DNA of 64,000 nt, from positions 3,691-67,690 of the forward strand of contig CAWJKE010000009.1 in the NCBI GenBank assembly GCA_963843455.1, written 5' to 3'. The notes beneath the pieces are model-generated. The model searched no databases. It was given only the letters and a program-made list of their open reading frames with translations, and was not told where the DNA came from. The position numbers were made by a program, and so were the translations under genes. This document shows positions 39,410-43,995 of the stretch, in pieces. The stretch's first letter is position 1. Each line of letters begins with the position of its first letter. The DNA is from an uncultured Actinomycetota bacterium. Its GTDB lineage: Bacteria > Actinomycetota > Thermoleophilia > RBG-16-64-13.

Positions 39410-39745
39410 GTGAATCTCTCCATCATCACCGAGACTCGGGAAGATTGTTTCGTCATGCACGTCAGCGGAGATCTGGACGTGTACACGGCTCCGCAATTGA
39501 AGGAAGCTCTTGACAACGTGGGCCTGGCCGGCAACGCGATCGTCCTGGATCTGGCTGCGGTCCATTTCATCGATTCGACCGCTCTTGGGGTCCTTGTCGC
39601 CGAACTGCAGCAGAGCCGGGCCCATGGCGGCGAACTCAGCTTGGTCGTGGACGACCCGCATCTTCTCAAGATCTTCCGGATCACCGGGTTTGACAGTCTC
39701 TTTTCGATATTCCCCCAGGTCGCCGACGCTCTCGCCTCAGTCTGA
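39410..39745 (+). CDS. STAS anti-sigma-factor antagonist (RsbV/BldG-like)
   Basis: GDLDVYTAPQLK, FIDSTALG phospho-Ser motif. Confidence 0.9.
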   Translation: MNLSIITETREDCFVMHVSGDLDVYTAPQLKEALDNVGLAGNAIVLDLAAVHFIDSTALGVLVAELQQSRAHGGELSLVVDDPHLLKIFRITGFDSLFSIFPQVADALASV

Positions 39746-39823
39746 CGTGGGCTGCCGACGGGAACCCCGTCAGGCGTGCTATCTTTCGGCTTCGCAAACG
39801 CCGGGCGACGAGGAGCCGCTTTC

Positions 39824-42089
39824 TTGCGACTGATAATCACTGAGAAGAACGACGCCGCGAAGAAGATCGCCGGGATCCTGTCTGCCAACGGGGTCCGGAC
39901 CGAGTCGTACCTCAAGGTCCCGTACTATCTCTTCACCGACGGCGAAGGACAGCAGTCCACGGCGGTGGGCCTCAAAGGCCACGTCGTCCAGGTGGATTTC
40001 CCGCCCGAGTTCTCGGAGTGGCGCAAGGTCGAGCCCAGCGCGCTCATCGACGCCCCCCTGGTCAAGACCGAGACCGCTAAATCGGTGGTGCGGACGGTCA
40101 AGAAGCTCGCCGCGGACGCTTCCTCTCTCATCATCGCCACCGACTTCGATCGCGAAGGCGAACTCATAGGCCTCGAGGCCATGAATCTGGCCGTCGAAGA
40201 GAACGGCAGGCTGGTACGGACGGTGAGGCGCGCTCGTTTTTCGGCGTTGACGCCCGGAGAGATAAAGCGGGCCTTCTCCCATCTCGATCATCTGTCGGAG
40301 CCCCTTGCCCGGGCGGGCGAAGCTCGGCAGGACATAGACCTGATCTGGGGCGCCACCCTTACCCGCTTCGTCTCGCTGGCTACCGGTCGCCTTGGCACCC
40401 AGTTCTTGAGCGTCGGCCGGGTCCAGACACCCACTCTCGTTCTGGTGGCCGAGCGGGAGAAAGAACGGCGGGCGTTCGTCTCGGAGCCTTTCTGGGTGGT
40501 GAAGGTCGATCTCGAGTCAGACGGGCAGCGCTTCAGCGCGACCCACAAGGACGACCGGTTCACCGACGAGGCTCGGGCCAAGGCGGTGTTCGAGAAGCTG
40601 GCTTCTCCCGGCAAGGTCACCGCGGTCAAGCAGACCACGCGCAAAGTCCCGCGGCCGGCGCCCTTCAACACCACGAGCTTCACGATGGCCGCGACCTCTC
40701 TCGGCTACGGCGCTGCGGCGGCGATGCGCGTCGCGGAAGATCTCTACATGGCGGGGCATATCAGCTACCCCCGGACCGACAACACGGTCTATCCCTCCTC
40801 GCTCGATCTGCGGGAGGCGCTGGAGATCCTCGCTCAGGGAGAGTTCGCGAGGGAGGCCGGTGCCTTGCTGGCTCTTCCGGCTCTGCACCCCAGCAGGGGT
40901 GACAAACGCACAACGGACCACCCGCCCATCTACCCCACCGGCAGCCCCAGGAAGGGCGAACTGGGGGACCGCGAGTGGCGGCTGTACGAGCTGGTGGCCA
41001 GGCGCTTCATGGCCACCCTGGCCGACGACGCGGTGATGGAATCGAACCGGGTGGATGTGAACCTGAGCGGGGAGCCGTTCGTAGCCCGGGGTAATCGGGT
41101 GGTCTCGGCCGGTTGGTTCGAGTACTACCCCTACAGCAGGCAGAAGGACCTCGAACTGCCGTTGCTGCACGAGGGCGACCTGGTGCAGCTCGTGGACAAA
41201 CAGTTCGACGCCCGCGAGACCCAACCGCCTGCCAGGTTCGGGCAGGGGACCCTCATCGAACTGATGGAAAAGCACAACCTGGGGACCAAAGCCACCCGTC
41301 ACGCCATCATCCAGAACCTCTACGACCGGGGCTACGTCCACGGGAACCCGGTGGAGCCTACCGAGATGGGCATCAAGATGGCCGAGGCGCTCCAGGAATA
41401 CGCCCCGCGCATCGCTTCTCCGGAGATGACCGCCGAACTGGAGAAGGATATGGACCTCATCTCCGAGCGCGATCTGACCAAGGAGCAGGTGGTCACCATC
41501 TCTCGGGATTTGCTGCGTGAGGCCTATGGACATCTCGAGCAGAACCGGCAGCAGGTCGCTTCAAAGATCTATGAAGGCATCACCGACGACCGGATCCTGG
41601 GAGACTGCCCCAAGTGCGGCACGCATAGGATCAGAGTCATCCGCTCGAAGGCCACCAAAAAGCGCTTTGTGGGTTGCGAGGGATACCCCGATTGCGACCA
41701 GACCTACCCGTTGCCCCAGCGCGGTGACATCATCGGGACCGGGGAGATATGTCCCCAATGTGGGAGCCCGAAGATCAAGGTCCTCGGCGGCCGCCGGCCC
41801 TGGATCCTGTGCCTGGACCCGCACTGTCCCACCAAGGCGGAGTATCAGGAGAAGAGGGCGGCCCGGGCGAGTAAGGCCGAGGCCGCGGGCGACGGAGCCG
41901 CGGCGACCACCGCTAAGAAGGCCGCGACCGCCAAGAAGGCTGCGACCGGCGAAGAAGACCACCGCCAAGAAGCCGACGGTGAGAAAGCCGGCCGCCAAGA
42001 AGGCTGCGCCTGCCAAGAAGCCCGCTGCCAAGAAGACAGCGAAAGTGACCGCGACGTCCACGGCGACGGCCGACGAGGCCCCTCGTTGA
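39824..42089 (+). CDS. topA: DNA topoisomerase IA, archaeal-type, with Zn ribbons and Lys/Ala-rich tail; one extra base near 41948
   Basis: LIITEK, ATDFDREGELIG, SVGRVQTP, ISYPRTD, TDHPPIYP, LGTKATR; true tail PAKKTTAKK..EAPR stop 42089 is in a shifted frame; TTG start after GAGGAG. Confidence 0.9.
41900..42070 (+). repeat. xAKK/PAAKK Lys-Ala coding repeats (TopA tail)
   Basis: TAKKAATAKKAAT-AKKTTAKKPTVRKPAAKKAAPAKKPAAKKTAK. Confidence 0.85.
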
Positions 42090-42185
42090 GCGACGACACG
42101 GAGGGCGTCCACGACGGACGGCCGCTGCGCGCCGACTGCCGGCGACCCGACTCTGCCGCCCGAAGACGCCTCGCTGGACGACTCG

Positions 42186-42836
42186 GTGCTTGCGGGCATG
42201 GGCTGCGGCCTCAAGGGGCTGTTCGTCACGTTCGAGGGACTCGACGGCTGTGGCAAGTCCACCCAGATGGAGTTGCTGGCTCAGGCTCTCGCCGCTCGGG
42301 GTTTTGTGGTGGCGGTGACCCGCGAACCGGGCGGGACTCCACTGGGCGAGGCGATAAGAGAGATGCTCTTGGATCCCCTGCACCGTGGTATGTCCGCGCG
42401 GGCGGAAGCCTTGCTTTACGCAGCCGCCCGCGCCCACTTGGTGGAACAGGTCGTCAGACCGGCTCTGGAGGATGGGCAGATAGTGCTCTGCGATCGCTAC
42501 ATCGACTCTTCCCTGGCCTATCAGGGCTACGGCCGCGGGCTGGGATCCGACTACATCATGCTGGTGAACGACTGGGGCACCGACGGCCTGTACCCCGACC
42601 TGACCCTGTTCCTAGATCTCGACGACTCGGTGCGCTCGACCCGTCTGGCCGCGGTCCCCGACCGCCTCGAAGCCGAGGACGATGAGTTTCATAAGCGCGT
42701 GGCCCAGGGTTACCGTGAGCTGTTGGCGCTGCACCGCCACCGCATCCGCAGGGTGGACGCCACGGGAAGCGAGTCCGAGGTCCAGGAGCGGGTGCGCGCT
42801 ATCATCGAGCAGGAACTCGAACTCTTCAGTCACTAG
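42186..42836 (+). CDS. tmk: Thymidylate kinase
   Basis: FEGLDGCGKSTQ, TREPGGT, CDRYIDSSLAYQG. Confidence 0.96.
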   Translation: MLAGMGCGLKGLFVTFEGLDGCGKSTQMELLAQALAARGFVVAVTREPGGTPLGEAIREMLLDPLHRGMSARAEALLYAAARAHLVEQVVRPALEDGQIVLCDRYIDSSLAYQGYGRGLGSDYIMLVNDWGTDGLYPDLTLFLDLDDSVRSTRLAAVPDRLEAEDDEFHKRVAQGYRELLALHRHRIRRVDATGSESEVQERVRAIIEQELELFSH

Positions 42837-42858
42837 ATTCGAGCCCGAAGGCGGAGTC

Positions 42859-43995
42859 ATGCGGGGACTGTTCGCCGATATCATCGGCCAGGAGATGGCC
42901 GTTTCTCTGCTTGCCCGAGCGTTGGAGCAGGGAGCGTCGCACGCCTATCTCTTCTCCGGTCCGCCCGGAGTGGGCAAGACGGAGGCCGCCCTGGCGTTCG
43001 CCGCCGGCCTCGCCTGTCCCGACGGAGGCTGCGGAGCCTGCGATACGTGCAGGCGGGTGCAGGAAGGGCTCCATCCCGACATCGAGATCGTCGCTCCCGA
43101 GGGGAACTTCATCCGTAAGGAAGAGGTGACCGAGATCAACCTGCACGCCGCGTACCGGCCCTACGAAGCCCGGGCGAAGGTCTACATCTTTCTGGAGGCG
43201 GACAGCTTCAACACTGAAGCCGCCAACGCCTTCCTCAAGACGCTGGAGGAACCACCCGGTCACGTCCACTTCATCCTTGTGACCGATCGCCCCGAGCACC
43301 TTCTGCCCACCATCGCCTCCCGTTGCCAACTGGTGGCCTTTTCGTCGGTGGCGGCGCCGCTCGTGGCGGCGGACCTCTCCGGCCGGTTCGGGCTCCGCCC
43401 GCAAGAGGCGTCGCTGCTTGCCCGGGTGGCGGGCGGAAACCTGAGCTACGCACGGGAACTCGCGGTCTCGGACAACGCTCGCCGCCAGCGGGACGTTCTT
43501 CTTGATCTGGCTCGGGACCTTCCCGCCGCCGGGTTGCTCGATACCGAGATCGCGCTCGACGAAGCGATAGCAAGCGTGGAGTCGCGCGAGGGAGAGGTGG
43601 TCCCCGAGATCAAGGCCGAGCTCAAGCGCGCTCTCGAGTGGGCCGGGGACGCACGTACCCGCAAGTGGCTGGAGAAGCGGAGCGAGGACAAGATCAAGCG
43701 GCAGCAGCGCCGTTTGCGCACGCGGGGCCTGCAGACCCTCACCCGGGTGTTCGCCGGCTGGTACAGGGATCTGGCCCTGGTCTCGGTCGGCGCCGAGGAC
43801 GCGGTGCTCAATCAGGACCGGCTGAGCGAACTCCGGGCCATGGCCCTGCCCGGCGGCTTGACCGCCTATACCCAGGCCGTGGGGGCGGTGCAGAGGGCTG
43901 AGGAGCGGCTCCGGTATAATGTCGATGCCCGATGTGCGGTCGGGGACATGTTTTTTACTATCAAGGAGGCCCTGGCTCAGTGGCCGATGTCGTAG
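42859..43995 (+). CDS. holB: DNA polymerase III delta' subunit
   Basis: HAYLFSGPPGVGK, CGACDTC...HPD, ANAFLKTLEEPP, LLPTIASRCQ. Confidence 0.93.
   Translation: MRGLFADIIGQEMAVSLLARALEQGASHAYLFSGPPGVGKTEAALAFAAGLACPDGGCGACDTCRRVQEGLHPDIEIVAPEGNFIRKEEVTEINLHAAYRPYEARAKVYIFLEADSFNTEAANAFLKTLEEPPGHVHFILVTDRPEHLLPTIASRCQLVAFSSVAAPLVAADLSGRFGLRPQEASLLARVAGGNLSYARELAVSDNARRQRDVLLDLARDLPAAGLLDTEIALDEAIASVESREGEVVPEIKAELKRALEWAGDARTRKWLEKRSEDKIKRQQRRLRTRGLQTLTRVFAGWYRDLALVSVGAEDAVLNQDRLSELRAMALPGGLTAYTQAVGAVQRAEERLRYNVDARCAVGDMFFTIKEALAQWPMS

Follow-up and report, generated by a model that had tools for sequence, protein, structure and literature searches.

An archaeal-type topoisomerase IA in the topA position of Actinomycetota

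The topA locus and its reading frames

The window analysed here is a stretch of 64,000 nucleotides from an uncultured soil bacterium of the Actinomycetota (class Thermoleophilia; assembly GCA_963843455.1, contig CAWJKE010000009.1), and the element under study is its type IA topoisomerase gene, topA, which spans 39824-42089 on the forward strand and whose product is assigned here, on its sequence, to the known and curated family NF005555 as a new member. The gene begins with a TTG codon and ends with the stop codon at 42087-42089, which is where a preliminary description of this DNA, made without database searches, had placed them. The TTG at 39824 is most likely the true start, given that a Shine-Dalgarno-like GAGGAG (39810-39815, +), seen directly in the sequence, lies 8 nt upstream of it, and that the open frames of relatives start at the matching residue. 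In the list of open reading frames (ORFs), frame 1 is open from 39776 to 42685, and its translation contains all four peptide segments that the preliminary description had quoted as resembling archaeal enzymes. The first 708 codons of the gene (39824-41947, +) encode, according to translation, Pfam and the NF005555 match, the Toprim domain, the type IA core, two zinc ribbons and the first AKK repeats; the Pfam matches are Toprim, Topoisom_bac (PF01131, E 6e-120) and Zn_ribbon_Top1.

Alignment to TopA and TopB of Escherichia coli recovers a complete type IA catalytic set, consisting of E7, D107, D109, E111, Y315, R317 and H366. The Toprim motif T-E-K (39839-39847, +) places Glu7, followed by Lys8, at E9 of E. 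coli TopA and E7 of TopB, and the acidic cluster DFDREGE (40142-40162, +) places D107, D109 and E111 at D111, D113 and E115 of TopA. The active-site motif SYPRTD (40763-40780, +) holds the catalytic Tyr315, aligned with Y319 of TopA and Y328 of TopB, together with Pro316 and Arg317, the latter aligned with R321 of TopA. A lysine after the Toprim glutamate and a proline after the catalytic tyrosine are the signatures that separate topoisomerase III (Topo III) from bacterial topoisomerase I (Topo I) (PMC10969213, a 2024 review), and both are found in the window protein, as T-E7-K8 and S-Y315-P316-R. The core is followed by a first four-cysteine (C4) zinc ribbon, CPKC...C.GYPDC (41606-41695, +; PF01396, 36.6 bits, cut-off 32), and by a second, CPQC...CLDPHC (41750-41827, +), for which Pfam gives no separate report and which is recognized by four cysteines in ribbon spacing that are kept in relatives.

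Pfam identifies a TPR gene and a STAS gene upstream of topA, and tmk and holB downstream of it, which confirms the STAS-topA-tmk-holB context of the preliminary description. The STAS-domain gene, of the anti-sigma-factor antagonist type, occupies 39410-39745 on the forward strand (Pfam STAS, E 3.7e-24); upstream of topA it gives tblastn matches in Gaiellales-like loci only, and this part of the arrangement is thus kept just within the window's own order. The thymidylate kinase gene tmk (42186-42836, +; Pfam E 2e-46) is a conserved downstream neighbour, and is followed by holB, for the delta-prime subunit of DNA polymerase III (42682-43995, +; Pfam DNA_pol3_delta2, E 9e-48, and synteny). Read from its first ATG, the holB frame overlaps the end of tmk by 155 nt and its Pfam match begins only at residue 70; the true start of holB probably lies downstream of 42682.

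The length of topA, 2266 nt, cannot be divided evenly by three, and the frame breaks at the GG of 41948/41949. After ...AKKAAT, which ends at 41947, frame 1 continues as an acidic, Cys-rich sequence and then crosses tmk, staying open as far as 42685. The next frame encodes, at 41949-42089 (+), a Lys/Ala/Thr-rich tail of 46 residues with AKK/PAKK repeats that ends in ...TADEAPR, plus the stop codon. The Lys-rich AKK tail of the preliminary description is therefore real, but it is readable only across the break, and the two frames had been joined unremarked. The frame of the tail is open over 41517-42089 (190 codons) and appears as a separate ORF in the list.

DNA alignments (blastn) with the loci of two relatives, L018 and L054, show a single-base gap each, at ACC-GG-CG, the window having one extra G, and this is the only uncompensated gap in the gene whose length is not a multiple of three. 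The close relatives L018 (93% identity), L019, L020 and L021 carry the same kind of tail in frame, ending in ...TADEEPL, and several related metagenome-assembled genomes (MAGs), presumed to be long-read assemblies, contain garbled or fragmented copies of topA. Given the in-frame tails of the relatives, the one extra base and the garbled copies, the shift is probably an assembly error. A real frameshift, by which the last 46 residues of the tail would be lost and about 245 foreign-frame residues gained across tmk, or the tail be reached by programmed frameshifting, is the more doubtful alternative, though one to be taken seriously. It gains weight, at the expense of the assembly error, from the surrounding genes, which show few or no uncompensated insertions or deletions relative to L018 and none that is clear save possible differences in the start and end of holB at 42854 and 43975, so that a recent mutation remains conceivable; in addition, the sister family f6 functions without any tail. 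It is opposed by the in-frame tails and garbled copies just described and by the shifted frame itself, which encodes an intact Lys-rich tail with its stop at the same place as in relatives; as for programmed frameshifting, no slippery-site or structural signal was seen, although none was searched for.

Family assignment and phylogeny

The scoring against archaeal and bacterial models gives a clear separation. The whole protein reaches 897.2 bits with the NCBIfam model NF005555 (cut-off 635, E 9e-270) and passes, marginally, the archaeal model TIGR01057 topA_arch (463.1 bits, cut-off 458), while it stays below the cut-offs of the bacterial TopA model TIGR01051 topA_bact (235.7 bits against 456.4) and of the bacterial Topo III models TIGR01056 topB (248 against 515.75) and NF005829 (289 against 597). 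With such an E value and with the bacterial models below their cut-offs, the archaeal-type character of the protein is far beyond chance. Among 14 named control genomes, NF005555 was passed by Haloferax and Methanosarcina alone. The reverse gyrase model TIGR01054 gives 164.5 bits against a cut-off of 471.7, with a match that covers only the topoisomerase part of the model, and reverse gyrase was rejected as a candidate given that the protein begins directly with Toprim and has no N-terminal helicase-like domain.

The sequence comparisons point in the same direction. Among solved structures, human TOP3A (258 bits), human TOP3B (253) and Sulfolobus Topo III (PDB 6k8n, 230) come closest in sequence, matched over nearly the whole core, and scores are lower for E. 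coli TopA (162 bits) and mycobacterial TopA (98-116), and also much lower for E. coli Topo III. The window protein is 45-46% identical to Halobacteriota proteins of 752 residues and 28% identical to E. coli TopA, E. coli TopB and classical actinomycetotal TopA. These Halobacteriota proteins are equal in length to TopoIIIα of Methanosarcina. No Topo_C_Rpt domain is found in the window protein, for which Zn_ribbon_Top1 is the only Pfam match after the core; the tails of classical actinomycetotal TopA carry the repeat GRFGPYVTDG.

The closest characterized enzyme is TopoIIIα of Methanosarcina acetivorans, which, with its Halobacteriota relatives, belongs to the same curated family above cut-off (NF005555 / PRK07220; TIGR01057). 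It shares the Toprim and active-site motifs, its Y317 corresponding to Tyr315 of the window (PMC3202574), and C4 zinc ribbons likewise follow the core in the Halobacteriota enzymes. Unlike M. acetivorans, the host of the window enzyme is a bacterium with gyrase and without Topo VI; unlike the Halobacteriota genes, the window gene sits in the bacterial topA-tmk-holB slot, and its product ends in a Lys/Ala/Thr-rich tail, whereas theirs end in acidic segments resembling a helix-hairpin-helix. With bacterial Topo III, such as E. coli TopB, the window protein shares the Topo III-type signatures and the general fold family, but E. coli TopB works alongside TopA as an accessory decatenase, whereas the window enzyme stands alone. 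Sulfolobus Topo III and human TOP3A and TOP3B differ from it in their C-terminal domains and partner proteins, and are mainly decatenases or dissolvases that act with helicases, unlike the role presumed for the window enzyme.

Trees were computed from 107 rows under LG+G4 and from 57 rows under LG+C20+F+G4, and approximately unbiased (AU) tests were made under LG+G4. In both trees, ω-type TopA, that of classical Actinomycetota included, lies far from the window clade, and bacterial TopB forms a clade of its own (100/100). The actinomycetotal sequences of NF005555 type are united in a single clade (94/85; 93% of bootstrap trees contain it), which joins Halobacteriota at 100/99, with the main Halobacteriota clade next to it; outside both branch a divergent paralog of Halobacteriota (95/81) and the enzymes of Methanobacteriota and Thermoproteota (90/70). 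The AU test rejects a union of the actinomycetotal clade with TopB (p 0.014), and also rejects a grouping of all archaeal rows to the exclusion of the actinomycetotal clade (p 0.008). The protein is thus nested in neither bacterial TopA nor TopB, and the view of the preliminary description that it is of archaeal type is upheld by models and trees alike. The window groups with its own family (100/100), then with f6, then with Solirubrobacterales and f7, and then with Rubrobacter, and this order, which follows organismal groups, looks like vertical descent. Concerning the paralog, many Halobacteriota genomes carry two genes of TIGR01057 type, one of them this very divergent form of about 785 residues (L223-L225).

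The link between Actinomycetota and Halobacteriota is firm on these comparisons, and an archaeal source of the actinomycetotal enzyme is favoured, short of proof of direction, on the grounds that archaeal sequences form the outgroups and that nearly all Archaea have Topo III (PMC2647321). In the proposed history, an archaeon related to Halobacteriota would have been the donor in a single ancient transfer and an early member of the Actinomycetota the recipient, in which the gene would have displaced the bacterial ω-type topA upstream of tmk-holB and would since have been inherited mostly vertically. Several points weigh against this history. Support for the direction of transfer is moderate (90/70 and 95/81); the AU test does not reject all Halobacteriota rows as one clade (p 0.58), so that the nesting of the actinomycetotal clade inside Halobacteriota is not secure; the groups used in the AU tests were partly defined after inspection of the trees; and the sampling left out Thermoplasmatota, Asgard and other archaea. 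The converse history, in which Actinomycetota gave rise to the enzyme type, or had long carried it, before the Halobacteriota ancestor received it from them, possibly in the period when those archaea acquired bacterial gyrase, fits the unrejected monophyly of the Halobacteriota rows and the sister relation of the two clades, as well as the diversity of the actinomycetotal clade (at least 20 family codes) and a documented single transfer of bacterial gyrase into Archaea (PMC8643681). It is nonetheless judged unlikely, given that the joint clade falls within the Topo III radiation, where other archaeal enzymes are its neighbours, that the second Halobacteriota paralog branches outside it, that an archaeal source needs fewer events when Topo III is near-universal in Archaea, and that the presence of ω-type topA in the same slot of classical Actinomycetota suggests ω-TopA as the earlier resident.

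Distribution, gene position and the C-terminal tail

The preferred history, that of a transfer out of Archaea, concerns a type of enzyme that is widespread in the phylum. Close relatives at 80-96% identity are found in Gaiellales and Thermoleophilia MAGs, and the same type occurs in Solirubrobacterales and Rubrobacter at 52-54% identity, including the closed chromosome of Rubrobacter marinus, and in Coriobacteriia at 41-45%. Within the window's own family, the archaeal type is alone in every genome with a match (22 of 24). The survey of the class, proposed in the preliminary description and made here on 151 genomes that are each at least 90% complete, finds the archaeal type in 79, which pass NF005555 and belong to the families f1, f3, f6 and f7. 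Across the phylum, in a sample of 151 genomes drawn evenly from Actinomycetota, NF005555 was passed in 61 and topA_bact (ω-TopA) in 82, and no genome passed both cut-offs. Seven of the 82 ω-type genomes (G161, G177, G205, G224, G243, G272 and G296) are flagged as unpublished; these were used in the phylum tally and in one row (L131) of the first tree only, and no conclusion depends on them.

A third kind of enzyme is seen in the same class, given that a TopB-type enzyme is the sole type IA gene in the families f2, f5, f8-f10 and part of f4. At ten such loci (L095-L104, in G025, G030, G038, G105, G049, G053, G085, G146, G043 and G101), NF005829 reaches 670-705 bits against its cut-off of 597, and neither ω-TopA nor the archaeal type was found in these genomes, one of which (G030) consists of a single contig. 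Taken with the archaeal type and ω-TopA, these families give one class with three kinds of sole type IA enzyme.

The enzymes of archaeal type also vary in their architecture. Those of Coriobacteriia (L062, L066, L074) have 883-915 residues, of which the first 110-130 precede the match to NF005555, itself beginning only at model positions 65-72; they have long C-termini, with striking AAKPKAK repeats in L074. The proteins of family f3 contain an insertion of about 47 residues in the Toprim region, at model positions 126-131 (L107, G036:C1:589587-591848, and other f3/g19 genomes). An Oscillospiraceae MAG contig binned as Firmicutes (CAVGFB010000067.1, L069) carries an archaeal-type topA that is nearest to an Eggerthellales (Coriobacteriia) enzyme (99*) and is followed by tmk, and would represent either a secondary transfer or a mis-binned contig.

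In loci of Gaiellales-like bacteria, Solirubrobacterales, Rubrobacter, f3 and f7, tmk-holB comes directly downstream in order after the archaeal-type gene. In stretches of 12 kb from 13 classical actinomycetotal genomes, ω-type topA is followed by tmk-holB in the same direction in nine, and by holB alone in two more. The archaeal-type topA of Coriobacteriia is found without this linkage. The topA-tmk-holB position is thus common to both gene types and is not evidence of ω-type membership; the occurrence of both types upstream of tmk-holB speaks for a replacement in place, which would have happened at the origin of a large group and not in the window's genome. Of the in situ xenologous replacement suggested in the preliminary description, the topA-tmk-holB slot and the archaeal lineage stand, while its local or recent character does not, given the 61 of 151 genomes and the single clade to which their enzymes belong. 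In family f4, ω-type topA (L267 and L268, in G037 and G027; L274) is not near tmk-holB, which lies elsewhere in the genome, and looks like a secondary re-acquisition at a new place.

The members of the actinomycetotal clade, which include 'TopoI' of Rubrobacter xylanophilus (ABG04911) together with the Solirubrobacterales and Coriobacteriia enzymes of NF005555 type, differ from the window protein in the length and composition of the tail, although those of Rubrobacter and Solirubrobacterales, at 53-54% identity, share its tmk-holB neighbours; the Coriobacteriia enzymes, at 44% identity, have, unlike the window, extra N-terminal and C-terminal segments and no tmk-holB linkage. With K at 23% and A at 36% of its last 70 residues, the tail-containing protein resembles most of the window's family, in which Lys/Ala/Thr-rich tails are present and variable, while they are absent from the sister family f6. 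Elsewhere the tail is patchy, occurring in one Rubrobacter, some Coriobacteriia and one member of f35. In classical actinomycetotal TopA, the Lys repeats are located after the Topo_C_Rpt domains. The tail is best read, from this pattern, as a labile, lineage-specific and convergent gain and not as a piece of the old TopA. Such a gain fits the finding that Lys repeats raise the processivity of Streptomyces TopA (PMC5714199). A match of the tail ORF to the histone-H1-like HC2 model (21.8 bits, cut-off 40) was set aside, as it reflects Lys/Ala composition only. The possibility that AKK tails are a habit of the whole genome was likewise rejected, given that the window genome contains four K/A-rich segments, of which that of TopA is the sole strong repeat.

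The preliminary description had gone further and proposed a chimera, in which a recent and local xenologous replacement would have fused an archaeal core to the resident actinobacterial Lys-rich C-terminus. The gene does lie in the topA slot, and the AKK/PAKK composition of its tail does resemble the tails of classical actinobacterial TopA. Nonetheless, similarity between low-complexity sequences does not count as evidence for homology, f6 lacks the tail and the window's own family varies in it, and the C-terminal region consists of two archaeal-style zinc ribbons in place of a Topo_C_Rpt domain; no alignable non-repetitive block common to the C-terminus of the window protein and those of ω-type TopA was found. 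Moreover, the protein is 42-46% identical to the nearest archaeal proteins against 53-58% to the enzymes of f6, Solirubrobacterales and Rubrobacter, and one actinomycetotal clade covers several classes, which makes a true chimera very unlikely and leaves the claim without support. The remaining possibility, that binning or assembly wrongly placed an archaeal contig or segment in a bacterial genome, could be raised given that the best family matches are models named for archaeal enzymes, but it is refuted for practical purposes by the conserved synteny, with bacterial genes (STAS, tmk, holB and an Mrp/Nuo subunit) around topA on the same contig, an even GC (guanine plus cytosine) content over the whole window, and the recurrence of the arrangement in dozens of independent assemblies, the closed R. 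marinus chromosome among them.

Topoisomerase complement and proposed role

The genome to which the window belongs has 3.08 Mb in 16 contigs, is 95% complete, and contains a single PF01131 gene together with gyrB and gyrA, which form one adjacent pair; Topo IB, Topo VI and a second type IIA enzyme were not found. The window enzyme is the only candidate for relaxing the negative supercoils made by gyrase. As the sole type IA enzyme beside a single gyrase, it must remove excess negative supercoils, which is the job of TopA.

In the mechanism proposed by comparison with the family, Glu7 of Toprim and the cluster of D107, D109 and E111 would hold Mg2+, Tyr315 would cut one DNA strand and become linked to its 5' phosphate, and the other strand would pass through the gate before the break is resealed. 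The enzyme would thus be a housekeeping type IA enzyme of the archaeal/eukaryotic Topo III lineage that removes excess negative supercoils, and it would probably also unlink intermediates of replication and recombination, as Topo III does. The most likely contribution of the two C4 zinc ribbons and the Lys-rich tail is a better hold on DNA and greater processivity. That an enzyme of this family can relax DNA is known from TopoIIIα of M. acetivorans, of which as little as 10 fmol suffices to relax negatively supercoiled DNA in vitro (PMC3202574). Classical TopA of Streptomyces and Mycobacterium (TIGR01051) resembles the window enzyme in being the presumed sole type IA relaxase opposing gyrase, in the position of its gene upstream of tmk-holB and in its Lys-repeat tail; it differs in sequence (28% identity), in carrying Topo_C_Rpt, in the absence of the E-K and Y-P signatures and in belonging to a strongly separated clade.

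Three considerations tell against this role. The relaxase function is suggested by gene content and by one characterized archaeal relative; according to the 2024 review, no archaeal type IA enzyme with robust relaxation is known (PMC10969213); and with 16 contigs at 95% completeness, a second topoisomerase may conceivably have been missed. The account as a whole, in which a housekeeping enzyme of the Topo III lineage descends from an ancient archaeal transfer that displaced ω-topA, with a tail gained convergently and a frameshift due to assembly error, is nonetheless considered likely. A broader scenario is put forward more tentatively, as quite possible though short of probable: an archaeal Topo III would have taken the TopA job at the same position early in the history of the phylum, several lineages, that of the window among them, would independently have grown a Lys tail that makes the core a processive relaxase capable of balancing gyrase, and a switch to a TopB-type enzyme would have occurred elsewhere in the class.

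Reviews state that every bacterium carries an ω-type Topo I that opposes gyrase (PMC2647321, PMC10969213), and the swap in 61 of 151 sampled genomes contradicts these statements. The 'TopoI' of R. xylanophilus had been aligned with Methanosarcina TopoIIIα in a figure of 2011, without comment (PMC3202574); beyond this figure, no description of the replacement in Actinomycetota was found in open-access texts, to which the search was confined, and an ancient, phylum-scale displacement of ω-TopA appears to be under-described. If the broader scenario holds, the TopA role has been refilled more than once, and the rule of a universal ω-type Topo I fails across much of the Actinomycetota. About 40% of the evenly sampled actinomycetotal genomes are concerned, including cultured Rubrobacter and relatives of gut Coriobacteriia. 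It becomes a testable question whether a Topo III-lineage enzyme can run supercoiling homeostasis in a gyrase-containing cell, with the Lys tail as the enabler. Genes of the archaeal type are all annotated as 'DNA topoisomerase I', and drug work on actinobacterial TopA cannot assume one type of enzyme throughout the phylum.

Additional type IA genes are seen in some other actinomycetotal genomes. Some genomes of f3 (L108, G058) carry a second, Coriobacteriia-like copy of 871-907 residues. In R. marinus (NZ_CP045121.1, about 3070989-3072276; L173/L176), a second type IA gene has its match split over two frames, and in other Rubrobacter-like genomes (f22) there is a second gene that is intact, codes for 713-751 residues and is not of ω-type.

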